Shown: positions 5,898-56,395, numbered from the stretch's first letter. The stretch is DNA of 64,000 nt from Patescibacteria group bacterium (GCA_030583805.1 CP129476.1:902657-966656); one strand, 5' to 3'. Numbers and translations are program-made. Notes: generated from the sequence alone by a model not told the origin.

Positions 5898-5904
5898 TTT
5901 ATGT

Positions 5905-35663: not shown

Positions 35664-36200
35664 ATGCGTACGGCACCCGCACGTCTTCTCCTCGGCGCGA
35701 CATTGCTTGTCGCCGGTTTCGGCGTGATCACGGGCGGTTCGCCGCTGCGGAACGATCTCGTGCAAGGCGCTTTCGGTCTTGTCGACATGAAAGAGCGCCA
35801 GTGCCGGAAAGCGCCGTCGGCCGTCGGTTCCGTCTGCCCGAAGGGCTGCGAAGCCCGCCCGAGCCGCTCGCCGTCTGACCGATTGGTTCCGACGGAATGC
35901 CACAGCCCGATGTGGCTCGCGACTTGCGGCGATGCCTGCGATGCCGACGAAGGCTATATCCGTCTTGAAGACGGCGGTCTTGCCGACGCGCTGCGCCTGC
36001 GCCTCGTGCTTGAACAAGCGGCAGATGACGACATGCGGAAAAAGCTTGCCGCATACGGCGTCACGCTCGAGGCGCGGTTCGATGGCCTGTACCACTATGA
36101 CGCCGTCATTTCTCCCGACGCCGGCACCTCTTTGGAAAAAACCAAAAAGCGCCTCGAGGCGCTTTCCAGTGTCCGCTTCGTGGACTACGTTTTGAAGTAA
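35664..36200 (+). CDS. secreted Cys-rich hypothetical protein (178 aa)
   Basis: signal peptide LLLGATLLVAGFGV; multiple Cys. Confidence 0.5.
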   Translation: MRTAPARLLLGATLLVAGFGVITGGSPLRNDLVQGAFGLVDMKERQCRKAPSAVGSVCPKGCEARPSRSPSDRLVPTECHSPMWLATCGDACDADEGYIRLEDGGLADALRLRLVLEQAADDDMRKKLAAYGVTLEARFDGLYHYDAVISPDAGTSLEKTKKRLEALSSVRFVDYVLK

Positions 36201-38212: not shown

Positions 38213-40656
38213 TCGCGATTGACGAGCACCATGCCGACGAAGACGTCCTGGTCGAGCGGCGCTTTGAGTTCCAGTCTACCCGGTTCGACGTTCGCCTCTT
38301 CGGGAACGCTCGTGCGGATCGACCATCCTTTGGGAGCGAGCGTGCGGCTTTCGAGCGTACGACGCGACGTGCCCGCTTGCTTCTGCACGATGAGTTTCAA
38401 TTCCGCAGTCGGGACATAGGCGCCCACCGCGTCCTTTGCCCGTTCGACCCAAGACGCGGGAGCGCGTGTCAGATCGGCGAGGCGGAAGGGGAGGCGATAG
38501 CTCAGCTTCACGGTTTTCGTTTCTCCCGGCTCGAGCTGGACCCAGTTGCCGAAGACGGTGAGTTCCGATTCGTCGTGGATCGTCGTGCCGGAGGCTTCGT
38601 CGATCGTCGTCGGTCCTTCGACGGCGGCGAGCAGCGTCGAGGGCTGCAGCGTCGTGTCTTGGGGGAGGAAGTAGCCCTCGGCGGGAGCTTGAAACCCCTC
38701 GGCCGAGAGCAAGGTGCTGCCCTTCGGCACGTAGACGCGCATGTAGTCGATATTCTTGATGCCGGTAAAGAGCTCTCCGGGCTTTCCGCGGTGCGCGCGC
38801 GTCACGGTGACCGTATCGATGATGCTGCCGTCTTCCTCGAAGCGCGTTTCATGGCGGATGAACTCATCGATCACGCCGTCCGTTTTTCCTCCGGCGATGT
38901 TGGTGTCGATGACGGCGAGGTAGTCGGCGTCCGCCGTCGGACGGAGCGCTCCGGTCCATCCGAAGTCGTCGGCGGCTCGCTGCGTGCTCTCGTCGCTGAA
39001 ATAGACTTGGACGTCTTTGGAAGAGAGCGCTTTGCCGAAGGCGCTGGCAAGTTTCGGCAAGTCGCTCGACCCGCCGTCAACGAGCTTCTTCAGCAGCTTC
39101 GGCGCCATGTCGCTGATGATCTGCTTCGGCCGGTTCGTTTCGCGATCGTATTCGATCTCGACGGCCTTTTGCGTTTCAAGCATGAAGTTGTCGGCGGTAA
39201 TCGTCTTGCCGTATTCCGGCATTTCAATCGGACCGACGGCGCGCAAGAGCTCCTGCATCACGTTCGAGGTGACGGCGATCACGCCGTCGACCGTCGGACC
39301 GCCGCTCTTTTCGTAGAACCACATGAGCGAGCGAGCTGAAGTGGGGAAGTCCGGGAACCAGTTGGCGTCCTGGAATTCCCAGCGCGGGTTCACGAGTCGG
39401 AGCTGCTCCGGCGCTTTGATGCGGCGATTGAATCCGCCGCGCAAGTCGTAGGAACCGCCGGCGGGAATTTCAATTTTCTCGATTTCACCGTCTTTCAAAT
39501 CCATGAGCGCGAAAGAGCCGATGAAGCCTCCGGTCGGTCTCAGTTCGTTGGCGTTTTGGAACACGACGAGGTAGCGGCGCTTGCCGTTCGCGCCGATCGC
39601 GTCGAGCAGCGTCGGGGACGAGGATGAGGCGCGTTTCAAATCGGCGAGAGCCGAGACGACGTCTTCGCGAAGACGCACGAACATCGGGCGATACGCCGAA
39701 GGCACGCTGCGCGCGGAAACGTCGTTCAGGCGCGCGACGCCTTCTTCAAGATGGGGGAGCGCGTTCTCAAGCGCTTTCGTCATGTGCGCGAGTTTCACCG
39801 CGTTCGTCTCCTGCGACAACTGCATCGCGTCCAAACCGCGCGCAAGCTCCGCGCCTGCCTTGGAGACGGCTTCGCCGGCATCAAGAAGCTTGGTGCCGCT
39901 TGAGAGTTTTTCGCCGTTGCCGCTCAAGAGCGCCGCCATGCGGACGGTCAAATCGTCAACGCGCTCGCGCGTCGAAGCGAATGCTCCGGCCGAACGCGCG
40001 AACGCGTCGGCGGAAGATTCTCCGCCCAGGGCGCTTTCGCCGGCATCTTTCAGGCCGCCGACCGCTTCTTGCGCATCCGCGGCGATGACGCCCGCGCGCT
40101 CCAGCAATCCGGCGTACGACAACAGCGCTTGGAGCGGGAGCGTCACCAAGATGGCGAGCACGGCAAAGGCTGCCACTTGGCGCTTCCACGCGGCGTCGGG
40201 AAAGAAAGAGAAAGCGGGTTTCGTTTTTCGCGATAATTTGATCGTGACCGGCGCCGGCGTCGGGCGCTCAGGCACGACGGGAGCCTGCGGTCGTGCCAAC
40301 GCCTCCGTCGGTTTCGGAACGGGCGGGCGCGGCGTCTTCGGCTTGCGCTTGAAGAGCAGCGCGATCATGGCGAACGGCAGTTTCAAAAAGACGGCCACCG
40401 AGGCGCGCGGCGTTTTCCGGTGCGGCATGAACGGAACCATCGAGCGGTGGCTGTGATCGCGGCGCTTGAAGAGGCGCATCCAGATGCTCAGCTTCTGCCC
40501 GAAATCCAAGTCCGGGCGCGGACCTTGCTGCGCTTGTTTGGAAAAAGCCGAAAGATCGACGATGTGCGGAGACACCGTAGACGAAGGCTGGATCGGCACG
40601 TCTTTATGCCGTCCTTCCTCGCGGTTCATCGATTCGCGCCGCGCTTGCTCGTTCAT
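38209..40656 (-). CDS. DUF4012-domain membrane protein
   Basis: hallmark RYLVVFQNANELRPTGGFIGSFA; TM helix; ATGA overlaps at both ends. Confidence 0.8.
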   Translation of the reverse strand: MNEQARRESMNREEGRHKDVPIQPSSTVSPHIVDLSAFSKQAQQGPRPDLDFGQKLSIWMRLFKRRDHSHRSMVPFMPHRKTPRASVAVFLKLPFAMIALLFKRKPKTPRPPVPKPTEALARPQAPVVPERPTPAPVTIKLSRKTKPAFSFFPDAAWKRQVAAFAVLAILVTLPLQALLSYAGLLERAGVIAADAQEAVGGLKDAGESALGGESSADAFARSAGAFASTRERVDDLTVRMAALLSGNGEKLSSGTKLLDAGEAVSKAGAELARGLDAMQLSQETNAVKLAHMTKALENALPHLEEGVARLNDVSARSVPSAYRPMFVRLREDVVSALADLKRASSSSPTLLDAIGANGKRRYLVVFQNANELRPTGGFIGSFALMDLKDGEIEKIEIPAGGSYDLRGGFNRRIKAPEQLRLVNPRWEFQDANWFPDFPTSARSLMWFYEKSGGPTVDGVIAVTSNVMQELLRAVGPIEMPEYGKTITADNFMLETQKAVEIEYDRETNRPKQIISDMAPKLLKKLVDGGSSDLPKLASAFGKALSSKDVQVYFSDESTQRAADDFGWTGALRPTADADYLAVIDTNIAGGKTDGVIDEFIRHETRFEEDGSIIDTVTVTRAHRGKPGELFTGIKNIDYMRVYVPKGSTLLSAEGFQAPAEGYFLPQDTTLQPSTLLAAVEGPTTIDEASGTTIHDESELTVFGNWVQLEPGETKTVKLSYRLPFRLADLTRAPASWVERAKDAVGAYVPTAELKLIVQKQAGTSRRTLESRTLAPKGWSIRTSVPEEANVEPGRLELKAPLDQDVFVGMVLVNRE

Positions 40657-41783
40657 GACGGGAGGGAAGAAAGATAGGCTTGATAGGTGCGCTCCGCGCA
40701 GTCTTTCCACGTGTATTTTTCCGCTTGGGCACGTCCGCGCTCGGCCAGCGTCGCTCGAAGCGCGTTATCGGCGAAGGATCGCTGCATGGCTTCGGCCATC
40801 GCGTCAGGATTCTCGGGGTCGAAATAGGTCGCGGCGTCGCCGAGCACTTCCGGCAGGCAGGAAGAGTCGGAAGCGGCTACCGGCGTTCCGTAGCGCATCG
40901 CTTCGAGCGGCGGCAGGCCGAAGCCTTCGAGAAGCGAAGGGAACACGTAGACGCGGGCGTTGCGGTAGAGCTCAGCCAATTCGGACTCCGTCGCGTATCC
41001 GTAGAAGACGGCATCGTTCCGTTCAAGCAGTCCAAGCCGCTCGGCCTCTTTTTTCAAACGATCGTAGAAATAGTCCATTTTTCCGACCAAGACGAGCTGG
41101 GCCTCAAGCCCTCCGGCCCGCATACGCTTGAACACGTCGAGTAAACGCTCCAGGTTTTTGTGCGGATACGCGTTGCCGACGTAGAGAAAGTACGGTTTTA
41201 CGATCTTTTTGTTCGTCAGATCGATCTGCGCCCCGCCATTCGCTTGAACGGCGTCGGAAGCCTCGTAGGTGACGGTAATTTTTCGTTCAGGAACCCCGAG
41301 AGACTGCGTGATATCGCGTTTCGTGTACTCCGAGACGGCGATAATCCTTTTGGCGCGCCGCGCGGCGAGTCGGATCGTCAGGTGGTAGGCCGCGTATTTT
41401 AGGCGGTACATCACGGCGTTCAAGGTCGTGGCTCTCCGGGTCGGATACCGGAACAAGATCAGGTCATGGATCGTCACCACGAACGGGCACGGCGTGAGGA
41501 TCGGCACGTTGAAGTGCGGGAAATGCATGAGATCGATCCCTTCTCGCCGGATCAGGGGCGGGAAATGCACCTGTTCCGACAAGGAATACCAAGGAAAATC
41601 GGCCAAAACCTTGCGAAAGCGCGCTGAAGTCGGGTGGTAGAGATCGAAGTTCTCTTTTCGCAAAAACACCACAAATTCATGCTGGCTCTCGATCCGCTCC
41701 AGGTTCTCAATGAGCCTTTCGGTATAGCGGCCGAGTCCTTTGCCAACAGGTCCGAAAAACCGCGCATCAATACCGATTCTCAT
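40653..41783 (-). CDS. glycosyltransferase family 4 (GT-B)
   Basis: 376 aa; Glyco_trans_4 N-domain + C-terminal EX7E-type catalytic pattern (PSLLEGFGLPPLEAMRYGTPVAAS). Confidence 0.85.
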   Translation of the reverse strand: MRIGIDARFFGPVGKGLGRYTERLIENLERIESQHEFVVFLRKENFDLYHPTSARFRKVLADFPWYSLSEQVHFPPLIRREGIDLMHFPHFNVPILTPCPFVVTIHDLILFRYPTRRATTLNAVMYRLKYAAYHLTIRLAARRAKRIIAVSEYTKRDITQSLGVPERKITVTYEASDAVQANGGAQIDLTNKKIVKPYFLYVGNAYPHKNLERLLDVFKRMRAGGLEAQLVLVGKMDYFYDRLKKEAERLGLLERNDAVFYGYATESELAELYRNARVYVFPSLLEGFGLPPLEAMRYGTPVAASDSSCLPEVLGDAATYFDPENPDAMAEAMQRSFADNALRATLAERGRAQAEKYTWKDCAERTYQAYLSSLPS

Positions 41784-41885: not shown

Positions 41886-42049
41886 ACTTGTGTATCCACA
41901 GGGCTTAGCAGGGCTCTGCGGAAAAACAAAAACAAATGGGGGGGAGTCTTTACAATTTTTTGGCTCGAATTAGCGGTTTTGATACCGACCGCCAGGTTGA
42001 TTTCGTGCTCCCTGGCGGTTTTTCGTACAAAAAGACCCTTCTTAAGGCG

Positions 42050-45000
42050 ATGAAAGCCGTTTTCCCCGCGGTTTTCATCGCCTTTTTCCTCATTTCCCCT
42101 GCCTACGCCGCCAACTCCGTCCCCAAGGTCCTGAACTATCAAGCCCGGGTCACCGATTCGGGCGGCGTACCCGTCCCGAACGGGGCTCTGTCCGTCATTT
42201 TCCGCCTGTACGACGGCGACGGCACCTGTCTGTATTCGGCTCGCGGCTCCTGCGGCACCCCGACGGCCAAATCCGTCACGGTGACGAACGGCGTCTTCTC
42301 GACCCAGCTCGGCGAAGCGGGCGACAACGAGATTCCGGACGGTCTCTTCGACAACAACGTCGTGACTCTCGGCATTACGATCGGCGCGGACGCCGAAATG
42401 ACCCCTCGGAAGCGTCTCACCGCCGCCGCCTATGCCCTGAACGCCGACCGCCTCGATGATCTCGACGTCACCTCTTCCGGTTCCACGACCGCCTACATCC
42501 CGAGTACCACGGCCAACGGCAACCTCGTCATTACGGGCGATCCGCAGGGTACGGGCGTCGGCAACGGCTCCTTCTATATCAACCCCGCCAACGCCGCCGC
42601 TTCGGAGACCCTCTTCGGCATCGCCGACAACGGAGGCGTCCGCTTCCAGATCGACAAGGAAGGCGACATCACGCACACGGGCTCTCTCCTCGCCACCGCC
42701 GCCTCCTCGACGGCGCAGTTCGTGTTCCGGGGTGCGGCGAGCCAGACGAACGGCGTGTTCGGAATCCAAGACGCGAGTCAAAACCGCTTGCTCACTGTTT
42801 CCGCCACGTCGACCTTGATCGGCGCGGACGCTTCCGCATATCGCGTCGGTATCGGCATGGCGAGTCCGACTGCACTGCTGCACCTCGCGGACACGGCGAA
42901 CGCGCAATTGAAACTTCAGAGGATCGGCGCGTCGGCACAGGCTGGCACGCTCAATTTTGGCAACCAGGGCAGTCTCATCGCCAACTCCCGCGCTGCGATC
43001 AACAACTACGTCTTGCGCAACGACGGCGCGCTCCATTTGATTCGCAACCTCATTTTCCAGAGCGTGGATTGGGAACTTGAGGCCAACGGCACGGGCGCGC
43101 TGCTTGAAGTCGGCGAGGAAGGTATTTCTCTCTGGACGGCGCCGTCTTCCACCGCGGGCACGCAGAACCTCGCCATTCTCTTCATGGCGCGCGACGACGG
43201 AGATATTGCTATCCCCGCGAACGTCGGCATCGGCATCGCGTACAGCGACCCGACGGTCAGCGTTCCTTTGTATGTACAAGGTACGACGTCGGAAATCATG
43301 AAGTCGATCCGCAATTCGGCGCTGACGAACGTCGCGACGACGGGTTTGCGTGTCGTGCAAAACTCTTCGAACTCGAGTCTTGCCGACGGCTTCGGCATGG
43401 TCATTCAGTACGCGATCGACAGTCCTTCGATCGCGGAAACGGTCCTGGCTGAAGTCGGCGGTATCCGCTACGGCGCGGACAACTCCGGTGCCATCGTTTT
43501 CAATACATATAACGCCGGTGCTGGCACCGAAAAGGCCCGCATTCTTCCGAACGGCTATTTCGGCATCGGTAACGCCGCGCCCGCGAACAAGCTCACTGTC
43601 GGTTCCGCCACCAGCACGTTCGAAGTCGACTTCAGCGGTAACGTGCGCAAGATCAACAATGTCATCTACAGCTGGCCGGCCTCGCAGGGCGGCGCCTCGA
43701 CGGTGCTGCAAAACGACGGCAACGGCGTTTTGACGTGGGCGTCTTCGAGCGGCGGCAACCTGAACCAGGCATATCTCGCTGCCACCGGTTCTCCGGAAAT
43801 TTCGCTCACGCCCTCGGTCGGCGCGGTTACGATCGCCGACACGCTCTCGGGCACCGGCAACATCTTCGAGATTACGGACCGCACGACGGCGGCCGGAGAC
43901 TTCTCGCGCCGCTATTTCACCGTCAGCTCGACGTCGACCAACCTGGCGTACAACAACCTGTCGAGCGGCACCGCGTTCGGCGTCTCTTCAAGCGCGGCCT
44001 TCTCGGGCAACCTGATGGCGCTCGCCGGCACCGCGAACTTTACGGGAGATCTTCTTGAACTGACGTCGGCGGCTTCGTTCGGCCGCGGCATTTTCATCGA
44101 CTACGACGCCGGCAACAACGACGGCACGATCATCGAAATCATGTCGGACGAAACGAGCGTTTCCGGCACCTCGGCGGACACGCAGAAATTTGCGGTCTCG
44201 GCCGCCGGTTCCATTACCGGCGACGGCAACCTTACGATCGGCGGCTCGACCAACCTGGGCGATTCGACGGGCACCGACACGCTCGTATTCACGAGCGGCG
44301 CCACCACGGGTTCGCTCGCGCTCTTCCAGACCAGCGGCTCGGTCAGCACCGGCAACGTCATTCGCGTCACTTCTACGAACAACACGATGACGACGGGCCG
44401 CATGCTCACGACGGAGCACACGGCGCCGAACGTGGTATCGGCCTTCACCGGATTCATGAACAACTTCGAGGCGACCCGCACCTTCAGCAGCGCCGGCACC
44501 TACGGCGAATCCGGCAGCATCGCCCGCGTCCAGCGGAGTCTGACGAGCAACGGCGGGAGCGTGACGGTCAACGCCTCCGGAGACGTCATGCTGATCAGCT
44601 CGGACGGCACGCAGACGTCCGGCACCTTGAACATCACGGGCAGCGTCCTTGAATTGGCCCAGAACTACGCATCCGCCTCCGGCGCGGCCTTGAATATCGT
44701 GAATGCCGGCACGGGCGCCGACATCGCGCTTCCGGCCACGGCGATCATTGATATCGGCAACGGCGGCACCTTGATCTTCCGCGACGGCACGAACACGCTT
44801 TGTACGATCACGGACGCGGGAACGACGGGAGATTTCAGCTGCTCGGGCACCATTTCAGGCGCGAGCGGTGGCAACCTGAACCAGGCGTATCTCGCGGCCA
44901 CGGGTTCTCCGGAACTCTCGATCACGCCGTCCGTCGGCGCTCTCACGATCGGCGACACCTTCGGCGGCACCGGCAACATCTTCGAGGTGCAGGACCGCAC

Positions 45001-48000
45001 CAACGCCGCCGGCGACTACAGCATCCGCATGTTCAGCGTGAGCGCGACCGGTACGCGGATCGCTTCCGACGTCTTCTTCGCCAGCGGCGGCGGCAACGAC
45101 GCCTCGGTCGCCTTCATCGATGATCCGGACACCGGTTTCGCGAACGGCGGCACCAACCGTATCGACTTCATCACGGCCGGACAGACGAAGATCATTCTGG
45201 AAGACAACTTCACCCTGTTCGGCTCGACCGAACTCATCGTGAACGGCGGCGTCATCGACTTCGGCGCCTCTTCCGGCTTCCTGGCTGCGACGCCGACAAT
45301 CTTGGAAGTCGGCGGCGCGGCCACGACGCTCATCATGGGCGCGAACGGCCCCGGCACGACCCGGATCCGCAACAGCCTGGTCGTGAACGGCGATCCGCAG
45401 GGTACCGGCCTCTCGAACGGCACGGTCTACGTGAACCCCTCGGCCCCGACCGGCAACGAGACGCTCTTCTCGATCGCCAACAACGGCTCCTTGCGCTTCA
45501 AGCTCGATGCCGAAGGCGACATCGACGTCACGGGCAGCATGCTTGCCGTCTCCGCTTCGACGACGAGCCAGTTCCAGCTCCGCGGCTTTGCCGCCCAGTC
45601 CAACAACATCTTCGAAGTCCAGGATTCTTTCACGAACCGCCTCTTCTCGGTTTCTTCGACCTCGACGCGCTACATCAACCGCCTCATCGCCCCGGCGCAT
45701 GCCGTGAACCAGGGTCTCCAGATCCCGACCTTCGCCGGCGTCCCGACGGCGGTGACGGGAACGGCAGAGGGCGATCTGGTCTGGGATTCTACGGGCAACA
45801 GCTTGTATGCGTATAACGGCGCCGCGTTCGCGGCGATCGGCGGTACGACGAACTTGAACCAAGCGTATCTCGTTGCTACGGGCACTGCGGAAATCTCCCT
45901 CACGCCGTCCGTCGGCGCCCTCACGATCGCCGACACGCTCTCGGGCACCGGCAACATCTTCGAGATCCAGAACCGCACGACGGCAGCTGGCGATTACAGC
46001 ACGCGTTACATGACGGTGAGTTCAACCGGAACGACCGTCACGAACCTGACCATCACCGGCATTTGTACGGGTTGCGGCGGCGCGTCTCCGAGCTTGAACC
46101 AGGCGTATCTCGCCGCCACCGGCTCGCCGGAAATCTCCATCACGCCGTCCGTCGGCGCCCTCACGATCGCCGATACCTTCTCGGGCACCGGCAACATCTT
46201 TGAGATTACGAACCGCACTAATCCGGCGGGTGATTACAGTGCGCGCTACTTCACCGTCAGCGGAACGGCAACCTCGATCGCCACCAAAGCCTACTTCTCG
46301 CGCGGTGGAGGCAATGATGCCTCGATCGCCTTCATCGGCGATGAAGATACCGGTCTTTCGAACGGAAACGACAATCGTTTGGACGTGGTGATCGGCGGCG
46401 CGACGACGATGATTATCGACGATAACGTCACGGTTGTTGGTTCTTCTGAATTTACGGTCAACGGAGGCGTCATCAACATCGGCGCATCTTTCGGCCAGCT
46501 CGCATCTTCGCCGACCACGCTTGAACTTGCGCATGCCGCCACCACCCTCACACTCGGCGCGACCACGGGCACGACAACCACTCGCAACAGCCTGGTCGTC
46601 GGCTCCTCCTCGTCGACGCACGTCTTGAACACGACCGGCGCTCGTATCACCGGCAACCTCACGCCGTCCGCCGACAACACTTACAACCTTGGCGACTACA
46701 ATCGTCGCTGGAAGGATTTGTGGCTCTCGGGCGGCTCGGCCCACATCGCCTATAACACGAGCGGCACGACTTCGCTCGACATTGGCTGGGTCAATAGGTT
46801 TGCCCACCCGACCAACAGCCTCCGCGCGCGACTATTCTCGTCCGGACAACCGATCCAGATCACGCCGAACAATGGAGAGACGGCAGGTTTGTATATCGAC
46901 ACGGCTGGCAGGGTGGGTATGGGCACGACGCTGCCCACCATCAAGCTGCACGTCGAAGACAACGTCGCGGACTTCGTCGCGTACTTCGACAACAACGGCA
47001 GCGCCGACACGCGCGTAGGCATCATTATCGAGGGATGTGCCGACAACAACCCGACGTCGAGCTGCGAACTGATCAGCTTCCGCGACGGCGATGGCACCGG
47101 CATCGGCCGCGTTCGCGGAAACGCTTCTGGCGGCGTTACCTACGCCACGACAGGCGCCGGCGACTTCGGCGAACGTCTGCCCGGAGATCCGTGGATCCTG
47201 ACCGACGGTTATCTCGTGGCTGTGGGCGAAGCTGGTGTGGCATTGAAGGCGACGAATAGCGCGAATCTGATCGGTGTCGCGAACGACAACATCGTCTTCG
47301 CCGGCAATGACGACCTCGATCCGGCGACCAGCGTTCCGGTGGCCATGCTCGGTCTTGCCGACGCGTACGTAAACGTTGAAAACGGCGTGATCAAGGCGGG
47401 CGACCTTATTGCGCTCTCTTCGACGCCCGGCGTCGGCATGAAGGCAACCAAGCCCGGCATGGTCGTGGGACGCGCGATGCAGGACTGGAGCGGCCCGGGT
47501 CTCGGCAAAATCCAGGTGCACGTATCTCCGCAGTGGCACTCCGGCCTCTCGATCACGAACGACGGCGCGTCCTCGATCTTCGCCGACGACTTCGCCTTCA
47601 AGCCGCTCGACATCGCCTCGGCGACCGGCACCGCCTTCTCCTCGTATGCACTGAAATTCGGCGGTTCCGTGTGGGACAGCGCTTCGAACACCGCCGTCAC
47701 GCGCAACATCTCGATGCGCAACAATGTCAGTACTCCTGATATCTACCAACTTGAATTCAAGAATACGGTCGGCGGCACGCTCGCCTCGCTGAACCAGGCT
47801 GGCGACCTCGCCTTGGCGGGTTCCCTCACCGTGAACGGCGGCCTCGACTACGCCGAAACGTTCCCGGCGGCTCCGGACCTCGACGCCGGCGACATCGTCA
47901 TGGTCGACGCGGCGAATACCAACGGCTACGGCGTGAAGAAGTCCGACGCCGCCTACGAAAACACCCTCCTCGGCGTCATCTCGACCAAGCCCGGCTTCCT

Positions 48001-48892
48001 GACGGGCAAGAGCACGGCGGGTACCCAGCCCGTGGCCCTCGCCGGCCGCGTACCGGTCAAGGTCAACACCGAATCCGGCGAGATCAAGCCGGGCGACCCG
48101 ATCACTTCGTCCTCGACGCCTGGCGTCGGTATGAAGGCGGCGGAAGCCGGACGCGTCATCGGTATCGCGCTTGAAGGCTGGAACGGCAGCGGCACCGGCC
48201 GCATCACCGTCTTCGTGAACCCCTCGTGGTGGAACGGCCCGGCCGCGCTCGCGGGAGCGATCGCAGGTGGCACGTTGTCGACCAATGGCGAAACGCTGAT
48301 TGATCTCAAGAACTCCACGCTCGCGGGCGTCTCCGCCATCGTTTCGACCAGCGGTCTCTGGAGCGTGACTTCCGACGGCATCTTGGCCGCGCAGAAAGTC
48401 GAAGCCAAGAGCGTGCAGGCCGAAAACGTCGTGCTTGTTCAGTCTGAATCGGCGGCGAGCGTTTCCGAGGGCGTCGTGCCCGAAGGGTATAACGCGACGC
48501 TCGTGCGCAATCCCTCCATGACATCCAATGCCAAAGTCTTTGTCTCCTTCCTGGGAGATCCGGGCGGAGGCTATTGGATCGGAGAAAAGGGTGAAGGAGA
48601 CTTCACGCTGCACCTGGCCAGGCCGGCCACACAAGATTTGCCGTTCGAGTATTGGATCCTTGGCGTCGACGACCGCCGTCCCAGTCCCCCCACTGGGACG
48701 GACGAGTCGACGCCTCTCTCGGACGGATCACCTCCGATCGATCCGGAAACCACCGGATCGGCATCGGGCACGGAGGAGACGGAACCTACGCCGACCGGCG
48801 CGGATCCGGATCCGACGGAACCTATCGTGACGGAAACGAGCACGAGTACGGATCAGACGGAATCGAGCACGAGTACGGACGCGAGTCCGTAA
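42050..48892 (+). CDS. giant secreted repeat protein (2,281 aa) with phage tail-fibre-like motifs
   Basis: signal peptide MKAVFPAVFIAFFLISPAYA (alt. upstream ATG 41936); five ~75-aa NLNQAYLAATGSPEIS...GTGNIFEI..RT.AAGDYS repeats; GRVGMGTTLPTIKLHV tail-fibre motif; duplicated C-terminal domain (...SSTPGVGMKA...). Confidence 0.8.
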   Translation: MKAVFPAVFIAFFLISPAYAANSVPKVLNYQARVTDSGGVPVPNGALSVIFRLYDGDGTCLYSARGSCGTPTAKSVTVTNGVFSTQLGEAGDNEIPDGLFDNNVVTLGITIGADAEMTPRKRLTAAAYALNADRLDDLDVTSSGSTTAYIPSTTANGNLVITGDPQGTGVGNGSFYINPANAAASETLFGIADNGGVRFQIDKEGDITHTGSLLATAASSTAQFVFRGAASQTNGVFGIQDASQNRLLTVSATSTLIGADASAYRVGIGMASPTALLHLADTANAQLKLQRIGASAQAGTLNFGNQGSLIANSRAAINNYVLRNDGALHLIRNLIFQSVDWELEANGTGALLEVGEEGISLWTAPSSTAGTQNLAILFMARDDGDIAIPANVGIGIAYSDPTVSVPLYVQGTTSEIMKSIRNSALTNVATTGLRVVQNSSNSSLADGFGMVIQYAIDSPSIAETVLAEVGGIRYGADNSGAIVFNTYNAGAGTEKARILPNGYFGIGNAAPANKLTVGSATSTFEVDFSGNVRKINNVIYSWPASQGGASTVLQNDGNGVLTWASSSGGNLNQAYLAATGSPEISLTPSVGAVTIADTLSGTGNIFEITDRTTAAGDFSRRYFTVSSTSTNLAYNNLSSGTAFGVSSSAAFSGNLMALAGTANFTGDLLELTSAASFGRGIFIDYDAGNNDGTIIEIMSDETSVSGTSADTQKFAVSAAGSITGDGNLTIGGSTNLGDSTGTDTLVFTSGATTGSLALFQTSGSVSTGNVIRVTSTNNTMTTGRMLTTEHTAPNVVSAFTGFMNNFEATRTFSSAGTYGESGSIARVQRSLTSNGGSVTVNASGDVMLISSDGTQTSGTLNITGSVLELAQNYASASGAALNIVNAGTGADIALPATAIIDIGNGGTLIFRDGTNTLCTITDAGTTGDFSCSGTISGASGGNLNQAYLAATGSPELSITPSVGALTIGDTFGGTGNIFEVQDRTNAAGDYSIRMFSVSATGTRIASDVFFASGGGNDASVAFIDDPDTGFANGGTNRIDFITAGQTKIILEDNFTLFGSTELIVNGGVIDFGASSGFLAATPTILEVGGAATTLIMGANGPGTTRIRNSLVVNGDPQGTGLSNGTVYVNPSAPTGNETLFSIANNGSLRFKLDAEGDIDVTGSMLAVSASTTSQFQLRGFAAQSNNIFEVQDSFTNRLFSVSSTSTRYINRLIAPAHAVNQGLQIPTFAGVPTAVTGTAEGDLVWDSTGNSLYAYNGAAFAAIGGTTNLNQAYLVATGTAEISLTPSVGALTIADTLSGTGNIFEIQNRTTAAGDYSTRYMTVSSTGTTVTNLTITGICTGCGGASPSLNQAYLAATGSPEISITPSVGALTIADTFSGTGNIFEITNRTNPAGDYSARYFTVSGTATSIATKAYFSRGGGNDASIAFIGDEDTGLSNGNDNRLDVVIGGATTMIIDDNVTVVGSSEFTVNGGVINIGASFGQLASSPTTLELAHAATTLTLGATTGTTTTRNSLVVGSSSSTHVLNTTGARITGNLTPSADNTYNLGDYNRRWKDLWLSGGSAHIAYNTSGTTSLDIGWVNRFAHPTNSLRARLFSSGQPIQITPNNGETAGLYIDTAGRVGMGTTLPTIKLHVEDNVADFVAYFDNNGSADTRVGIIIEGCADNNPTSSCELISFRDGDGTGIGRVRGNASGGVTYATTGAGDFGERLPGDPWILTDGYLVAVGEAGVALKATNSANLIGVANDNIVFAGNDDLDPATSVPVAMLGLADAYVNVENGVIKAGDLIALSSTPGVGMKATKPGMVVGRAMQDWSGPGLGKIQVHVSPQWHSGLSITNDGASSIFADDFAFKPLDIASATGTAFSSYALKFGGSVWDSASNTAVTRNISMRNNVSTPDIYQLEFKNTVGGTLASLNQAGDLALAGSLTVNGGLDYAETFPAAPDLDAGDIVMVDAANTNGYGVKKSDAAYENTLLGVISTKPGFLTGKSTAGTQPVALAGRVPVKVNTESGEIKPGDPITSSSTPGVGMKAAEAGRVIGIALEGWNGSGTGRITVFVNPSWWNGPAALAGAIAGGTLSTNGETLIDLKNSTLAGVSAIVSTSGLWSVTSDGILAAQKVEAKSVQAENVVLVQSESAASVSEGVVPEGYNATLVRNPSMTSNAKVFVSFLGDPGGGYWIGEKGEGDFTLHLARPATQDLPFEYWILGVDDRRPSPPTGTDESTPLSDGSPPIDPETTGSASGTEETEPTPTGADPDPTEPIVTETSTSTDQTESSTSTDASP

Positions 48893-48931
48893 GACGACGG
48901 TTGTAAAAGACTCCCGCTGCACGGGAGTCTT

Positions 48932-50089
48932 TTACGTACCGGCAATGATGTCGAATGCGCCTTCGGTTTTCTCGGCGCAGGCGCTCCAACGAAACAGCGT
49001 GGCGCGATCCCGTCCTCTTGCGACATACCGTTCCGCGAGCGAAGGGGAGTCGAGGATGGCGTCGATCGCGGCGGCGATTTCCGTCGGTCGATAGGGGTCT
49101 GTCAGGAGTCCGGCGGTCTCCATGATTTCGCTGAGAGCGCCGGCGTGCGAGGCGACGACGGGCAGTCCCGAGGCCATCGCTTCGAGCGGCGGCAGGCCGA
49201 AGCCTTCATAGAAAGAGGGGAAGGCCAAGAGCGACGCGAGGCGGTACAAGCATCGGCGATCGAGATCGTTCACGTACCCGAGCAATCGGATGTCATCGCG
49301 GTACGGGCTGCGCCGGATGGCTTGAAGAATCGCGGCGTTGTTCCAGCCGGACGGTCCTGCGAGCACCAAACCCAGTCCGGCATAGCGCGCCTGCGGGCGG
49401 AGCTGATGGTAGGCGTCGAGCAAGCCGAGATGGTTTTTCCGGGGTTCCAGCGCTCCGACGTGCAGAATGAAGCGCTCTGGCAATCGCCAGCGTTCGCGCG
49501 CTTGCCGCAGCGCGTCTTGGGGCGGCGTGTCGAAAAAATCCGAAGCGACGCCTTCATGGGTGACGACGATCTTTTCCGGCGGCAGCCGCCAACGGTCGAC
49601 AAGATCGCGTTTCGTCGTTTCGGAAACGGCGAGGACGACGTTCGCGCGTCGGGCGAGATTCCGCGGCGCGACGGCGCGATGCCACAAGCGCTGTTTCAGC
49701 GAAAAAAATTCCGGATACGTTTCAAACGTCAGATCGTGAATGGTGAGCGCCAGCGGCAGGGAAGGGGAGAGCGCGACAAAATGCGGATTCGGCATCCAGC
49801 AGAGCGTCGGCGGCTCGGAAGCGAAGCGTTCCAGGTGCGGCGTCTTAAAAAGACGCATCGACGCGTTGAGCAGCTTGTTCGGATAGCGCGTCAACGTATC
49901 GATTCCGGCGACGGGCGCGACAAGATCCGCCTTCGGCGGCAGCGCCGCATTGGCCCACGTTTCAATCGCATAGCGGCCGGATTCCTTGAGCGCCGCCGTC
50001 AATCTGCGCGCGTACTCGAAGACGCCTCCGCCATTGCGGTCCAACAGGGCTCTTCCGTCGATGAGGACGCGGCGCGATCGATTCGACAT
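48932..50089 (-). CDS. glycosyltransferase family 4
   Basis: GT4 C-terminal motif AFPSFYEGFGLPPLEAMASGLPVVAS. Confidence 0.85.
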   Translation of the reverse strand: MSNRSRRVLIDGRALLDRNGGGVFEYARRLTAALKESGRYAIETWANAALPPKADLVAPVAGIDTLTRYPNKLLNASMRLFKTPHLERFASEPPTLCWMPNPHFVALSPSLPLALTIHDLTFETYPEFFSLKQRLWHRAVAPRNLARRANVVLAVSETTKRDLVDRWRLPPEKIVVTHEGVASDFFDTPPQDALRQARERWRLPERFILHVGALEPRKNHLGLLDAYHQLRPQARYAGLGLVLAGPSGWNNAAILQAIRRSPYRDDIRLLGYVNDLDRRCLYRLASLLAFPSFYEGFGLPPLEAMASGLPVVASHAGALSEIMETAGLLTDPYRPTEIAAAIDAILDSPSLAERYVARGRDRATLFRWSACAEKTEGAFDIIAGT

Positions 50090-50151
50090 GGAACGCTTGT
50101 GTGATTGTTGGAAAGCCGTTAGGGTCTTTGTAGGCAGTTTTGGAGGCCGTC

Positions 50152-50805
50152 ATGACGAGCATGCGTCTCTGCTTCGCGTTTCTGGTGCTCCTGGTTCTTC
50201 CGTCCGCTTGCCTCAAGTCGGTGTGCCCGACGTGTCCGACCTGTCCGGTCGCAACAGCCGGCGAGGACTGCGGGCCGCCGCCGATCGCCGATCCCGACTG
50301 GACGATGCGGGACGATCGTCCGGATCTGCCTGAAGGCCTCGCGTGTCTCAAGGATCCGCTGGCCGTACCGGCCTCGTACCTCATCGTCAACGCGCCGTTC
50401 CGCGACCCCGAGCATTGTTGGACGCCCAACATGCACCGCGGAACCGACTTGCGCGCCAAGGCCGATACTCCGGTCGTGGCCAGCGCTGCGGGCGAAGTTG
50501 TCGACGTTCGGCAGCAGCACGGCGAAACGTGGTCCGTGGAAGTTCGCTTCGGCGACGGCTGGAGTTACCGTCCGGCGCATCTGCGCGAGATCGCGGTTGC
50601 GCTCGGAGACAAGGTCGAAGCTGGCGACGTGCTGGGCTGGTCCGGCGGCGAGAGGAAGCAGCCGGGATCAGGTCCGTACACCACCGGCCCGCACTTGCAC
50701 TTCGAACTCGTCTACCAAGGCGCGTACGTCGACGCCGAGAAATACTTCTGCCGTTCATACGCGCGCTCGACCGCCACGCGCACGTGTCTCAAAGTGTGCC
50801 AGTAG
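50152..50805 (+). CDS. secreted M23-family metallopeptidase (LytM-like)
   Basis: GGAGG SD; signal peptide; HRGTD...HLHFEL zinc motifs; CPTCPTCP Cys-Pro repeat after signal peptide. Confidence 0.8.
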   Translation: MTSMRLCFAFLVLLVLPSACLKSVCPTCPTCPVATAGEDCGPPPIADPDWTMRDDRPDLPEGLACLKDPLAVPASYLIVNAPFRDPEHCWTPNMHRGTDLRAKADTPVVASAAGEVVDVRQQHGETWSVEVRFGDGWSYRPAHLREIAVALGDKVEAGDVLGWSGGERKQPGSGPYTTGPHLHFELVYQGAYVDAEKYFCRSYARSTATRTCLKVCQ

Positions 50806-50837
50806 CCGCCCGCCCTCCGAGGAGCGGGCTTTTCATT

Positions 50838-51455
50838 TTAGGCTGCGAGACGCTTCGGGCGCCAGGAGGCGTATGCGCACGCGAGGCCGATGAAGGCGCC
50901 GACGAACGCTCCGGCCAAGGCCGCTCGCGCCGGCGGAATGCGCGTTTCCGCGATAACCGGCTCGGAGGCGCTCACGATAAAGAGCGTTTCCTGTTCGGGA
51001 GAAAGGACGAGCGTCCGTGCGCGTTCAGAAACGTGGCGCGAAAGGCTCGCATACAACTTGGCGGCCGTTTCGGCATCGGACGCCGCATAGGCAACGACGA
51101 CGTTCTGGCTCGAATATTTTTTTCCTCGGAAAACGCGCCCGGAAATCGCCCTGATTTCGGAGTCGGTTCGCTGGATTCCGGCGTCGGCGAAGACTTCTTT
51201 GACGACGGAAGGCGTCGAGAGCCAGCTGATCATCGTGTCGGCGACGAGCTCCGAAGCGCGCAGGGCATAGTAGCCGTCGTACGAGTAATCGGACGTTTCC
51301 TGGCGCGCTTGCTGCGAGATCGTAAACGCGAATGAAACGTTGGTGCGCGGCGGCAAGGTTCCGGCGACGGCGGCGAAGAGCAGTGCGGCGGCCGCGGCGG
51401 AAGCGAGGACGGCGCGAACCGGATGCGAGAAGAATCCGACGAGGTGCGTTTTCAT
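50838..51455 (-). CDS. Wzz-like chain-length determinant-type protein (two terminal TM helices)
   Basis: TM near both ends with periplasmic middle; ATGA coupling to upstream GT4. Confidence 0.5.
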   Translation of the reverse strand: MKTHLVGFFSHPVRAVLASAAAAALLFAAVAGTLPPRTNVSFAFTISQQARQETSDYSYDGYYALRASELVADTMISWLSTPSVVKEVFADAGIQRTDSEIRAISGRVFRGKKYSSQNVVVAYAASDAETAAKLYASLSRHVSERARTLVLSPEQETLFIVSASEPVIAETRIPPARAALAGAFVGAFIGLACAYASWRPKRLAA

Positions 51456-52606
51456 GCGTGTGCGGTTTCGCGCGCGGTAACGCCGCGCTTTTCTTTTTGA
51501 ACGGCATGGGCCGTCTTGTGCGCTTTCCAGCTTTCCGAAACGAAGGAGGCGATACGGCGCTTGAAGACGCTGACGTCGAACGACTCGGCGTGCGCGCGGA
51601 TCGTGGCGGGGTCGTAACGCTCCGGGTTGAAGCGGATCACGGTTGCGGCAAGCTCCTCCCACTCCTGGTCTCCGAAAAACTCCCCGGTCACGCCCGGAAC
51701 GACGGTTTCAAGCGCGCCGCCGACGCCGTACGCGATGACGGGCCGTCCAGCCGCCATGGATTCGAGGGCCGTAATGCCGAAATCTTCTTCTTGCGGATGG
51801 ATGAACGCGATGGCGCCGCGATACAGCTCGGCCTTCTCGGCGTCGCTGACCTTGCCGACGAACTCGATGTTCGGGCGCGCGTGCTTCCGGTATTCCTTGG
51901 AGAGGGGACCGTCGCCGAAAATCTTGAGCGGCAGGCCGAGGCGGTTGAAGGCCTGGATGATGAGATCAAAGCGCTTATAGGAAACGAGGCGCCCGCCCGC
52001 CAAGAAGTACGTTCCGGGCGCGGTTGCGACGGAAAACTTTCCCGTTTCGACGGGAGGATAGATGATTTCGGAATCGCGGGCGTAATATTTTTTGATGCGG
52101 TCGGCGACCGTGCGCGAGTTGGCGATGAACCGGTCGACGCGGTCCGAGGACAAGCGGTCCCAGACGCGCAAGCGATTGAGGAGCATCGGCAAGAGCGCCT
52201 TCGTCAGGCGGTTCGCGTTCAACTCCTGCACGTAGCTGTGCGTGTCGCTCCACAAATAACGGGTCGGCGTGTGGCAATAGCAGACGTGCAACGTGTCCGG
52301 CTTCGTGATGATGCCTTTGGCGAAGGCGCTCGAGCTCGAAATCACGACGTCGAACTCGGAGAGATCGTGGCTCTCCGTCGCGGCCGGCATGAGCGGAAGG
52401 AACCACTGGTATTTTTTCAAAGCGAACGGAAGCTTTTGCAGGAACGACGTGCGGATGTCTTTGGAAGCGAATTCTTTGCTGACGCGCTTCGGATCGTAGA
52501 GCAGCGTGTAGGTCGGCGCGTTCGGAAAAATTTCCTGCAAGGCCAGCAAGACTTTTTCGGCTCCTCCGTCCTGCACCAGATGATCGTGGACGAGCGCGAC
52601 TTTCAT
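51452..52606 (-). CDS. glycosyltransferase family 4
   Basis: GT4 motif IHPQEEDFGITALESMAAGRPVIAYG. Confidence 0.85.
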   Translation of the reverse strand: MKVALVHDHLVQDGGAEKVLLALQEIFPNAPTYTLLYDPKRVSKEFASKDIRTSFLQKLPFALKKYQWFLPLMPAATESHDLSEFDVVISSSSAFAKGIITKPDTLHVCYCHTPTRYLWSDTHSYVQELNANRLTKALLPMLLNRLRVWDRLSSDRVDRFIANSRTVADRIKKYYARDSEIIYPPVETGKFSVATAPGTYFLAGGRLVSYKRFDLIIQAFNRLGLPLKIFGDGPLSKEYRKHARPNIEFVGKVSDAEKAELYRGAIAFIHPQEEDFGITALESMAAGRPVIAYGVGGALETVVPGVTGEFFGDQEWEELAATVIRFNPERYDPATIRAHAESFDVSVFKRRIASFVSESWKAHKTAHAVQKEKRGVTARETAHA

Positions 52607-52607
52607 A

Positions 52608-54032
52608 TCAGTACGCCCCTTTTTTCGCGAAGACCACAAACGGCGTCTTTGCCAGGATCGCCAGGTCCATGAGGGGCGTCCAGTTTTCGATGTAGAACGT
52701 GTCGAGGCGGATCTCGTCGTCGAAAGCGAGGTCGGAGCGGCCGGAGACCTGCGCCAAGCCGGTGATGCCCGGGCGCACCATGAGGACGCGGCGGTGGTGG
52801 CGCTGATATTTTTCGACTTCGCGCGTTTGGTGGGGGCGCGGTCCGATCAAGCTCATGTCGCCCTTGAGGACGTTGAAAAATTGCGGCAGCTCGTCGATCG
52901 AGAAGCGGCGGATGAAGCGGCCGACCTTCGTGACGCGCGGGTCGTCCTTGATCTTATAGACCGGGCCGTTTTTCATGCTGCGCTCGGCGATGAGCTTCTG
53001 CTCAAGCTCGAGGGCGGCGCGTTGGTCGGCGAATTGCTCGCCGATCGAGACGTCGGCGCGCATGGAGCGGAACTTGTAGGCGCGGAACTTGCGGCCTTGG
53101 AGGCCGACGCGTTCGTTGCGGAAGATGATCGGTCCGCGCGATTCGAGCGCCACGGCGATGGCCGCGAGCAGCATGATCGGCGAGGTAAGGATGATCAGGA
53201 GCACGGAGCCGATGACGTCGAAGACGCGCTTGTAGACGCGGCCCCATCCTTCGAGGCGCGTGCGCTTCACTTCAATCACGGGGATGCCGGCGATCGTCGT
53301 CGACAAGAGCGCGGCGTGCGCGGCCAAGGTGTCGGCGGCGTAGCGGAAGGTAAGGTGCCGGTCCTCCGCGAACTCGATCACGGCGCGCATGGCCTCCTTG
53401 CTGGTTTCAGGATCGGTTACGAAAATTTCGTCGACGTCGTCGGCGTCGCACAGCGCCGAAGCCGCGCGCGCCGCTTCCGCGTCCCATCGGGCGAAGCGCG
53501 CGATGATGCGGTAGCCGCCCGCGGGGTTCTTGGCGAACTGCTCGGTGATCGCCGCCGTGGCGCGATCTTCGCCGCCGACCACGATGACATGGCGCGCGCC
53601 GATGCCGCGCTTCAAGAGTTGGCGGTTCACGAGACGCACGAGCAAGCGCATGAAAATGACGTAGGCAATCGACAAGAGCCAGGCCGCCAAGACGACGAAT
53701 CGCGACGTGAAGAGCTCGCGCTGGAAGAAAATCAAAATGATGAGCCCCATCACGCCGAGCGTGCAGGCCGAGACGACTTTGACGGCTTCTTCCAGAATGC
53801 GGCGCGGGCGCTCGATCGCGTAGAGTCCGGTCAGCGCGAAAATCACCAAATACGCCAGAGCGATGGCTGCGGCGGCTTTGAAGAAATCGGGGTAGGGGAG
53901 CAGCGAGATGGCCGGACGGAGTTCGGCGAACGTCTCGAAGCGCAGACGGTGGGCGGTGAGAGCGGCTAGGAGCAGCGCCACGTAGTCCAAGGGCAGGAGG
54001 ATGACAGTGAAGGTCAGCTGGTTTCTGCGCAT
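52608..54032 (-). CDS. polyprenyl-phosphate hexose-1-phosphate transferase (WbaP/WcaJ-like 'bacterial sugar transferase')
   Basis: multi-TM N-term; C-terminal SMRADVSIGE...SIDELPQFFNVLKGDMSLIGPRP signature. Confidence 0.85.
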   Translation of the reverse strand: MRRNQLTFTVILLPLDYVALLLAALTAHRLRFETFAELRPAISLLPYPDFFKAAAAIALAYLVIFALTGLYAIERPRRILEEAVKVVSACTLGVMGLIILIFFQRELFTSRFVVLAAWLLSIAYVIFMRLLVRLVNRQLLKRGIGARHVIVVGGEDRATAAITEQFAKNPAGGYRIIARFARWDAEAARAASALCDADDVDEIFVTDPETSKEAMRAVIEFAEDRHLTFRYAADTLAAHAALLSTTIAGIPVIEVKRTRLEGWGRVYKRVFDVIGSVLLIILTSPIMLLAAIAVALESRGPIIFRNERVGLQGRKFRAYKFRSMRADVSIGEQFADQRAALELEQKLIAERSMKNGPVYKIKDDPRVTKVGRFIRRFSIDELPQFFNVLKGDMSLIGPRPHQTREVEKYQRHHRRVLMVRPGITGLAQVSGRSDLAFDDEIRLDTFYIENWTPLMDLAILAKTPFVVFAKKGAY

Positions 54033-55879: not shown

Positions 55880-56395
55880 GTTTCAAGCGAGCCTGTAAGC
55901 CGAATTCTGTCTTCCGACGTTGCCGCCGGAATGACGGTCATCTCTCTCGTCCCAACGTTGCCATTGGGATCAAGCAAGCTACCTAATTTGCTCTTGCACC
56001 GGATCGGTGTTTACCCCGGAGCCGATCACTCGACTGCCGCGTGGGCTCTTACCCCACGATTTCAACCTTACCTCACTCCCGAAGGAGGTCTCTCCATTGA
56101 AGGATGAGGCGGTATGTTTCTGTTGCTCCCCGTGCAAGCCTCGCGGCTCTCATGGGGCATCCTCCGAAGAGGACCCGCACGCCCGACGAATCGGGCTTCC
56201 CTGGGCTTGGCGTATCCGCACCATCTCTCGTTACCCGAGACATGATGTGATCCGTTGTTCCCGGTTGCCGTTAGCAACGATCTCTGAATCATGGATTGCT
56301 CCATGAAACGGTGTTCGGACTTTCCTCGATCCGCCTATTTTGGGCGGGTCGCGACCATCCGGCTCCCTTAAAACAGCTCCCAGGTACGATGTACC
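55880..56395 (-). ncRNA. rnpB: RNase P RNA (bacterial type A-like, ~500 nt)
   Basis: minus-strand GAGGAAAGTCCGAAC (CR-I/P4), GGTAAGAGCCCACG, GGTAAACACCGATCCGGTGCAAGAGCAAAT, ACAGAATTCGGCTTACAGG (CR-V/P4 3' strand). Confidence 0.75.

Follow-up and report, generated by a model that had tools for sequence, protein, structure and literature searches.

A two-operon gene cassette conserved across Patescibacteria probably directs assembly of a polyprenyl-phosphate-primed envelope glycan

We analyzed a 64,000-nt stretch of a Patescibacteria metagenome-assembled genome (MAG), hereafter called the window, and in particular its interval 48932-54032, which a preliminary description had read as a surface polysaccharide or glycosylation locus next to the gene of a giant secreted protein. 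This interval is probably the first operon of a two-operon envelope glycan cassette. It comprises the genes for a polyprenyl-phosphate glycosylphosphotransferase (PGT), the GT4 glycosyltransferase GT4B, a small protein related to polysaccharide co-polymerases (PCPs) that we call mini-PCP, and a further GT4 enzyme, GT4C. The second operon, at 36350-41783, encodes the third enzyme, GT4A, together with a DUF4012 membrane protein and a CLIPPER repeat protein. The best reading of the pathway is that it would build a polyprenyl-phosphate-primed envelope glycopolymer and that it works independently of the giant protein. Genes and families in the window were taken from a listing of open reading frames (ORFs) combined with Pfam and NCBIfam searches, and the gene starts within the interval follow the gene calls of an identical contig (L001) and the lengths of homologs. 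The genes of the two operons are the following (lengths and positions within proteins in amino acids, aa):

52608-54032, minus strand: PGT, predicted large WbaP/WcaJ/CpsE-type polyprenyl-phosphate hexose-1-phosphate transferase (Bac_transf, CoA_binding_3, TIGR03025)
51452-52606, minus strand: GT4B, GT4 glycosyltransferase of the retaining, GT-B-fold class (Glycos_transf_1 and Glyco_transf_4; EX7E motif EDFGITALE at aa 274)
50838-51455, minus strand: mini-PCP, Wzz-like protein of 205 aa (transmembrane helix, alpha/beta base domain, second transmembrane helix; its start overlaps the GT4B stop in ATGA)
48932-50089, minus strand: GT4C, GT4 glycosyltransferase (Pfam; EX7E motif EGFGLPPLE; kept in all relatives)
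40653-41783, minus strand: GT4A, the system's third GT4 glycosyltransferase, whose gene opens the second operon and is oriented divergently to the giant gene (Pfam; EX7E motif EGFGLPPLE)
38209-40656, minus strand: DUF4012 membrane protein of 815 aa (PF13196, 109 bits)
36350-38212, minus strand: membrane-anchored CLIPPER/DUF11 Ig-like repeat protein of 620 aa (PF01345, 37 bits; N-terminal transmembrane segment at aa 45-71)

The proposal of a glycan assembly set based on polyprenyl phosphate is borne out by the class of the PGT and by the families and motifs of the GT4 proteins. The PGT reaches 219 bits with the Pfam family Bac_transf (PF02397), whose gathering score is 27, carries a CoA_binding_3 domain (46.9 bits) ahead of the catalytic domain, and scores 408 bits with TIGR03025 in NCBIfam, where the cutoff is 295.6. 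It falls under the cutoffs of both the WcaJ equivalog (350.8, cutoff 410.75) and the WbaP equivalog (308, cutoff 403). Its membrane part consists of transmembrane windows within aa 5-136 and a re-entrant helix at 269-304, the catalytic Asp-Glu dyad is intact (DELPQ at aa 380), and the copies of all relatives are 77-93% identical. Its sequence thus places it among the polyprenyl-phosphate glycosylphosphotransferases of the large WbaP/WcaJ/CpsE type, as had been proposed. All three GT4 proteins contain an N-terminal Glyco_transf_4 and a C-terminal Glycos_transf_1 domain above the gathering score, together with the EX7E motif, and GT4C and GT4A are 34% identical. Cross-matches of the GT4 proteins to the NCBIfam models of IagA/BgsA and of GlcN-PG synthase are weak and far below the equivalog cutoffs.

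Two details of the preliminary description needed revision. It had counted three GT4 genes in the interval, two of them between 54032 and 50838 and one at 48932-50089. The latter is indeed present, but the former segment holds GT4B only, so that the interval encodes two GT4 enzymes and the third of the system lies beyond the giant gene, at 40653-41783. Similarly, the ATGA-type coupling described for the minus strand is found between GT4B and the small protein, but not between PGT and GT4B, where the junction reads TGA-T-ATG and GT4B starts 1 nt past the PGT stop. In the second operon, the GT4A/DUF4012 and the DUF4012/CLIPPER junctions are each an ATGA overlap.

The assignment of both operons to one system relies on their arrangement in other genomes. 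We used a metagenome set of 80 loci, which were retrieved with a DUF4012 profile and in which genes were placed by tblastn. The loci related to the window come from Minisyncoccota and Paceibacter MAGs; six records (L010, L011, L012, L013, L015 and L018) bear the title 'uncultured Gammaproteobacteria bacterium', probably a taxonomic mislabel. In L002/L003/L016 and in L006/L007/L011 the genes form one contiguous cluster on one strand, in the order PGT, GT4B, small protein, GT4C, GT4A, DUF4012 and CLIPPER, followed downstream by a gene of 172-178 aa, FemAB and RuvA. Distant lineages, represented by an Uhrbacteria MAG, the 886-kb record OZ246416.1 and Parcubacteria SG8_24 (L022-L024), have a core of PGT, three GT4 genes, DUF4012 and CLIPPER. 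These six genes occupy the same chromosomal place, with RNase J and tryptophanyl-tRNA synthetase upstream and FemAB, RuvA and isoleucyl-tRNA synthetase (IleRS) downstream; their DUF4012 proteins are only about 40% identical, and none of them has the small protein, the M23 peptidase described below or a giant protein. Over the metagenome loci, CLIPPER lies directly downstream of DUF4012 in 59 of 60 cases, a GT4 gene directly upstream of it in 56 of 61, and a PGT with at least three GT4 genes upstream on the same strand in 23 of 34. Judged from gene content and order, the glycan cassette is an old and widely conserved envelope unit of Patescibacteria, half of which is held by the interval. The term 'minimal glycan assembly set', which had been applied to the interval, is therefore misleading, since GT4A, DUF4012 and CLIPPER are part of the same system.

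The place where the window is split, between GT4C and GT4A, is variable in other lineages as well. The gap between the two genes is shorter than 320 nt in 26 of 39 metagenome loci, and in the remaining 13 it contains an unrelated insert of 0.5-5.2 kb. Among these inserts are:

L024 6040-8607 and L037 5581-8148: GlmS and RNase HII
L075 1995-3185 and L080 7342-7959: CDP-alcohol-phosphatidyltransferase-like membrane protein
L036 7374-8318: aldo-keto reductase
L041 3410-3988: methyltransferase

The GT4C/GT4A junction is thus a recurrent operon break and an insertion hotspot across Patescibacteria, with cargo that depends on the lineage. Two genes of the opposite strand interrupt the cassette in the window, one at this junction and one between GT4C and the small protein:

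41936-48892, plus strand: giant secreted G/T/A/S/N-rich repeat protein of 2318 aa (composition and repeats)
50152-50805, plus strand: M23 metallopeptidase with a lipoprotein-type signal (PF01551, 75.4 bits; HRGTD at aa 95, HLH at aa 181)

The giant protein has no Pfam, PHROG or PDB-sequence match, and its homologs vary in length (2082 and 2865 aa, the latter in GCA_054403375.1, whose architecture is split as in the window). A self-BLAST printed no internal repeats, but a motif search did find them: repeats of about 70 aa starting with NLNQAYL occur at aa 608, 980 and 1306, and a variant copy lies near aa 1395. A C-terminal module that ends in SSTPGVGMKA is present twice (aa 1831 and 2062); it has no Pfam or PHROG match, and we take it to be reminiscent of phage tail-spike autoprocessing domains. 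The C-terminus itself is an acidic P/T/S/E-rich tail with no sorting signal.

Adjacency to this protein had led to the suggestion of a protein-glycosylation system, that is, a dedicated O-glycosylation pathway with the flanking giant protein as its substrate. Several observations agree with this idea: in the window and in eight related genomes (L004/L019, L008, L009, L012, L013, L014, L015 and L018) the two glycan operons are separated by the giant gene, a giant gene is also next to the GT4A-DUF4012-CLIPPER operon of L020 and L025, and the giant protein is secreted and contains about 21% Ser+Thr in addition to the P/T/S/E-rich tail. Like the O-glycosylation and S-layer clusters of Campylobacter (pgl), Neisseria (pgl) and Geobacillus (slg, with WsaP and WsaB), the window has a PGT-initiated, glycosyltransferase-extended pathway to a lipid-linked oligosaccharide, with secreted repeat proteins nearby. 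Unlike them, it encodes no oligosaccharyltransferase of the PglB (STT3) or PglL/PilO/WsaB (Wzy_C) type and no GT-C protein anywhere in its 64 kb, has no dedicated flippase or ABC pair, and includes a co-polymerase, which is typical of polymers. Moreover, the candidate substrate is dispensable for the conservation of the cluster. Contiguous clusters with neither giant nor M23 gene are found in three clade genomes (L002/L016/L056, L006/L011 and L088), the cluster is likewise complete without the giant gene in L022-L024 and in all distant lineages examined, and the giant's junction carries unrelated cargo in the 13 loci mentioned above. Because the site of the giant gene is an operon break that recurs in other lineages, its presence there is no evidence of a functional tie, and the synteny of related genomes leaves the tie drawn from adjacency unsupported. 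Glycosylation of the giant protein is the least supported of the alternatives that we considered, and we regard it as very unlikely.

The M23 peptidase had been described as a divergently encoded, secreted protein with a CPTCPTCP motif after its signal peptide. The gene and the motif are present, the sequence SACLKSVCPTCPTCP following the signal peptide as a CPTCPTCP linker, and both zinc-ligand motifs (HxxxD and HxH) are intact. The motif, however, is lineage-specific: one homolog has CPVCP and the others nothing similar. The feature that the homologs do conserve is a Cys at the position immediately following the signal peptide, as in lipoproteins. Within the immediate clade, defined as the genomes carrying the small PCP and including 12 that could be scored for both genes, the giant and M23 genes are distributed as follows:

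giant present and M23 present: 8 genomes
giant present and M23 absent: 1 genome
giant absent and M23 absent: 3 genomes
giant state open and M23 absent: 1 genome

As raw genome counts, with phylogenetic non-independence left in, M23 occurs in 8 of 9 giant-bearing and in 0 of 3 giant-less genomes. This suggests that the two genes were gained and lost together, perhaps as an adhesin and a wall hydrolase serving host contact. The M23 gene is a variable insert outside the conserved cassette, and the giant gene is a lineage-specific, length-variable insert at the operon break and does not belong to the conserved parts of the glycan system. We also considered that the giant gene had been inserted recently and dropped this view, as it is present in 9 of the 12 scorable clade genomes; it is safer to describe it as variable cargo at a break that recurs. 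The glycan genes occur independently of the giant and M23 genes.

We then examined the small protein of the first operon, which had been described as Wzz-like. An ORF of 274 aa starting at GTG is also possible for this gene, and the L001 gene calls and homolog lengths favor 205 aa. Its transmembrane segments lie at 12-35 and 176-198, the second one being associated with a Pro-rich stretch (PVIAETRIPP) followed by GAFVGAFIG, a GxxxGxxxG motif. The protein has no Pfam or NCBIfam match at E <= 0.01, Wzz (PF02706) included. Its AlphaFold2 (AF2) model (pLDDT 86) consists of a transmembrane helix, an alpha/beta domain and a second transmembrane helix, with short helices only between the membrane segments and no long extracytoplasmic helical hairpin. 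The leading PDB matches of this model in Foldseek are KpsE, Wzz, WzzE and Wzc (probability 0.97-1.0, E about 1e-3, TM-score 0.4-0.6), and unrelated folds such as GGDEF appear lower in the list.

An exhaustive HMMER profile search extended the family of the small PCP to 773 representatives, and we consequently dropped the view that it is confined to a clade of 53 clusters. The profile finds the proteins P0333 (E 1.4e-37) and P0423 (E 1.2e-22), which are fusions of 423-425 aa in which a two-TM (two-transmembrane-helix) PCP domain is joined to a cytoplasmic domain resembling bacterial tyrosine (BY) kinases (weak AAA_31 match). P0333 scores 27.3 bits against Pfam Wzz, above the gathering score of 25.5, and five further members of the family match the same model under the gathering score. 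In the distant lineage that encodes P0333, the locus (L105 7154-11278) is a trio of PGT, GT4 and PCP genes, with no DUF4012 gene within 10 kb. Because of the PCP fold matches, the intermediates that reach Pfam Wzz and the recurrence of the trio elsewhere, the earlier assignment stands: the small protein is a true relative of Wzz and other PCPs, a mini-PCP of the CpsC/CapA kind without a kinase. It resembles Wzz, WzzE, KpsE and Wzc (PF02706) in its two-TM topology, its alpha/beta base domain and the Pro-rich segment followed by GxxxGxxxG in the second helix. It differs from them in being only 205 aa long, without the long periplasmic hairpin that forms the Wzz bell, in remaining under the Pfam threshold itself, and in having no Wzy, KpsMT or kinase gene as a partner in the 64-kb window. 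A broadened profile of the small PCP detects it in 2 of the 80 DUF4012 loci; within the DUF4012 cassette it is lineage-restricted. The presence of a protein of the co-polymerase type suggests a polymeric product and not a short glycan linked to protein.

The locus had been noted to lack Wzx/Wzy and an ABC export pair, and our survey of polytopic membrane proteins agrees: the only ones encoded in the 64 kb are the PGT, a desaturase and a single ABC exporter resembling MsbA, with no Wzx, Wzy, GT-C or oligosaccharyltransferase-like polytopic protein. No Wzx or Wzy was found by Pfam in the cassettes of L002-L024 either. The ABC exporter (23951-25720, minus strand) is a half-transporter, a fusion of transmembrane and nucleotide-binding domains like MsbA, glucan exporters, HepA and PglK and falls under every NCBIfam cutoff. 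It is the sole candidate exporter of lipid-linked glycans in the window and lies 25 kb away from the cluster.

The lack of a ligase or polymerase identified in the 64-kb window would fit a product that stays lipid-linked, such as a glycolipid or lipoglycan of the membrane, an anchor resembling lipoteichoic acid or a polyprenyl-linked surface glycan, with DUF4012 and CLIPPER acting only as scaffolds. The GT4 class includes glycolipid synthases, in line with the weak cross-matches to IagA/BgsA and GlcN-PG synthase; in this clade a fatty-acid desaturase gene adjoins the PGT, and CDP-alcohol-phosphatidyltransferase-like genes lie within the cassettes of L075 and L080. However, the initiating enzyme is of the polyprenyl-phosphate PGT class and not a diacylglycerol glycosyltransferase, the GT4 matches all remain far below the equivalog cutoffs, and the co-polymerase and the large extracytoplasmic part of DUF4012 speak for processing that continues past the membrane. 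We hold a lipid-linked end product to be improbable.

The possible function of the second operon depends mainly on the DUF4012 protein. Its AF2 model (pLDDT 77.6) starts with a disordered cytoplasmic N-terminus and a transmembrane helix, followed by an extracytoplasmic helical bundle of about 200 residues, an alpha/beta domain at about 355-590 and C-terminal beta-sandwiches. The best PDB match of the model in Foldseek is 3pe5_A (E 1.4e-4, TM-score 0.45 normalised to the target), which we checked to be a LytR-CpsA-Psr (LCP) protein, and Cps2A with bound polyprenyl phosphate (3tep, 4de8) appears further down the list. The other top matches look like beta-sandwich proteins, except for 4g2a, whose aligned region is undefined; with 4g2a set aside, the PDB matches to the alpha/beta domain are LCP enzymes only. 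PDB-sequence searches with the DUF4012 profile, as with the small-protein profile and the giant protein, returned nothing meaningful. DUF4012, whose modeled alpha/beta domain matched LCP folds in Foldseek, has in common with the LCP transferases (Cps2A, TagT/U/V and 3pe5) the N-terminal membrane anchor, the extracytoplasmic location and a place beside a PGT-initiated pathway; by eye, the order of secondary structures is also alike (beta, Arg-loop, beta, beta, alpha-beta-alpha-beta). On the other side, DUF4012 has a match to PF13196 only and none to LytR_cpsA_psr (PF03816) in Pfam, its hhalign probabilities against LCP proteins reach at most 1.5%, the catalytic Arg/Asp set is not demonstrably kept, and it adds the helical bundle and the C-terminal beta-sandwiches. 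Invariant residues of the family (R361, E371, R373, D386 and D404) map to strands and loops of the alpha/beta domain, their equivalence to LCP residues being unproven. Since profile-profile tests gave no signal, the likeness holds at the level of the modeled fold only, and we treat it as a lead and not as family membership.

DUF4012 is a large family, with more than 3000 clusters of homologs at E <= 1e-10, and is enriched in the Candidate Phyla Radiation (CPR) and in Gram-positive bacteria (PMC6744442). In the capsular polysaccharide/exopolysaccharide (CPS/EPS) locus of Bifidobacterium longum 105-A, a DUF4012 gene is flanked by the gene of the priming transferase and by wzz (PMC5412050). The window cassette shares with this locus and with cpsA-E of Streptococcus pneumoniae a WbaP/CpsE-type PGT, GT4 enzymes, a small two-TM protein of the PCP-2b kind (CpsC/CapA) and a large extracytoplasmic membrane protein nearby, which is the LCP protein CpsA in streptococci and DUF4012 in B. 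longum. Unlike these loci, it has no Wzx or Wzy in the cluster or elsewhere in the 64 kb and no phosphatase-kinase pair of the CpsB/CpsD type, and it adds the invariably coupled CLIPPER gene. It further differs from Gram-positive Wzx/Wzy capsule loci in being part of the core genome at a fixed chromosomal position, and not a variable serotype island.

The constant company of DUF4012 and CLIPPER can be read in two ways. They could be enzyme and substrate, with an LCP-like DUF4012 glycosylating CLIPPER or another surface or S-layer-like protein, so that the product would be a glycoprotein. LCP enzymes can glycosylate proteins, as Actinomyces oris LcpA does with GspA. The two genes are adjacent in 59 of 60 loci and joined by the ATGA overlap, and the LCP-like fold of DUF4012 would suit this role. 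CLIPPER/DUF11 domains have a CnaA-like fold and are typical of the stalks of surface proteins (bioRxiv 10.1101/2025.04.25.650565); the CLIPPER protein has no match in PHROGs. The tight coupling would equally fit a structural complex, however, evidence for acceptor sites is lacking, LCP homology is unproven, and the co-polymerase of this clade suggests a polymer. We therefore consider the enzyme-substrate pair unlikely. Somewhat less doubtful, but still tentative and dependent on the structural model, is that DUF4012 is a highly divergent phosphotransferase of the LCP fold which, with CLIPPER, carries out the attachment step (onto peptidoglycan or CLIPPER) of an envelope-glycan pathway that would be nearly universal in Patescibacteria, built by the PGT and three GT4 enzymes, and without classical Wzx/Wzy.

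Taken together, our preferred reading of a polyprenyl-phosphate-primed envelope glycopolymer would involve the following steps. On the cytoplasmic face of the membrane, the PGT would place hexose-1-phosphate on polyprenyl phosphate, and GT4B, GT4C and GT4A would add three sugars derived from nucleotide sugars, yielding a lipid-linked tetrasaccharide. We infer the four-sugar unit from the presence of one PGT and three single-domain GT4 enzymes. A transporter encoded outside the cluster would flip this unit, and at the outer face DUF4012, CLIPPER and, in this clade, the mini-PCP may control assembly or length and attachment to the wall. DUF4012 is the candidate for an LCP-like transferase that would take the glycan off polyprenyl pyrophosphate and pass it on to peptidoglycan. 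Peptidoglycan is the most likely target, given the analogy with LCP enzymes and the conserved FemAB neighborhood.

Four points weigh against this reading. First, neither the cluster nor the 64-kb window encodes a flippase, a polymerase or a canonical LCP protein, so that the pathway is incomplete as seen. Second, hhalign profile-profile comparisons of DUF4012 gave no signal, with a probability of 0.3% against four PDB-derived LCP domains and of 1.5% for the trimmed DUF4012 domain against 26 full LCP sequences under three mact settings. Third, the likeness of DUF4012 to LCP enzymes comes solely from Foldseek, and the LCP catalytic arginines are unmapped on it. Fourth, the two operons are separated by the giant gene in 9 of the 12 scorable clade genomes, and a lineage-specific functional tie is possible.

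Additional elements accompany the two operons in the window:

48905-48933, no strand: symmetrical A-run, hairpin and T-run, likely a bidirectional terminator, between the convergent giant and GT4C genes and overlapping the GT4C stop codon (read from sequence)
50808-50829, no strand: GC-rich hairpin with a T-run on the plus strand, between the convergent small-PCP and M23 genes (read from sequence)
35664-36200, plus strand: secreted or membrane protein of 178 aa with no family, convergent with the CLIPPER gene (N-terminal signal or transmembrane segment)

The hairpin at 50808-50829 probably terminates the M23 gene and marks where the PGT-GT4B-PCP transcription unit ends. A generic scan for promoters and terminators gave no signal above shuffled sequences, and both hairpins come from direct reading of the sequence only. 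The 178-aa protein has homologs at the same position, 51-70% identical, in those loci of the small-protein clade that extend far enough (L002/L003/L016/L056, L006/L007/L011, L019, L020 and L021). It has no Pfam or NCBIfam match, and no related gene is shown in the distant loci L022-L024. It is a conserved neighbor whose membership in the glycan system is uncertain.

The gene neighborhood has a cell-wall character, in keeping with the proposed pathway: FemAB is conserved next to the cassette, and GlmS and a GlmU-like uridylyltransferase are also encoded in the window. GlmS (region 8339-11266, plus strand) is unusually long, at 698 aa, and is followed by a 270-aa protein that corresponds to the uridylyltransferase half of GlmU only; the pair is likely a supply module for UDP-amino sugars. 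A 572-aa protein (11868-13586, minus strand) with an N-terminal transmembrane segment or signal and C-terminal bacterial TSP3 (calcium-binding) repeats is probably a surface protein. IleRS (28014-31424, plus strand, 1136 aa) carries a His_Phos_1 domain at aa 478-634, between the halves of its catalytic domain; this insert is common to L020, L022 and L024 and absent from L023, where IleRS has 966 aa. The 23S rRNA (2487-5899, plus strand) spans 3120 nt against a model of 2925 nt and so contains insertions; 5S rRNA comes next, and the upstream part of the window has no 16S rRNA. The RNase P RNA (55880-56370, minus strand) is 491 nt long, compared with 367 nt for its model, and the window also encodes a split transketolase. 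The long 23S rRNA, the 491-nt RNase P RNA, the split transketolase and FemAB are traits that we take to be typical of CPR bacteria.

The individual genes of the cassette are ordinary. Of moderate interest are the cassette as a unit, the DUF4012-CLIPPER pair, the absence of a recognizable flippase or polymerase and the hint of an LCP-like fold. The comparison also cautions that genes for giant surface proteins within such clusters may be opportunistic inserts and not partners. It defines a gene set (PGT, three GT4 enzymes, DUF4012 and CLIPPER) and gives a testable biochemical role to DUF4012, a family that also occurs in bifidobacterial capsule loci. If the proposed role is correct, it would provide a function for a large DUF family shared with the EPS loci of Actinobacteria and Firmicutes, and would define a core surface glycoconjugate of ultra-small, mostly episymbiotic bacteria. 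Patescibacteria have tiny and biosynthetically poor genomes and yet keep the six-gene cassette at a fixed position in lineages that diverged deeply, which suggests that its product is a core component of the envelope, at the cell surface through which these mostly episymbiotic bacteria contact their hosts.

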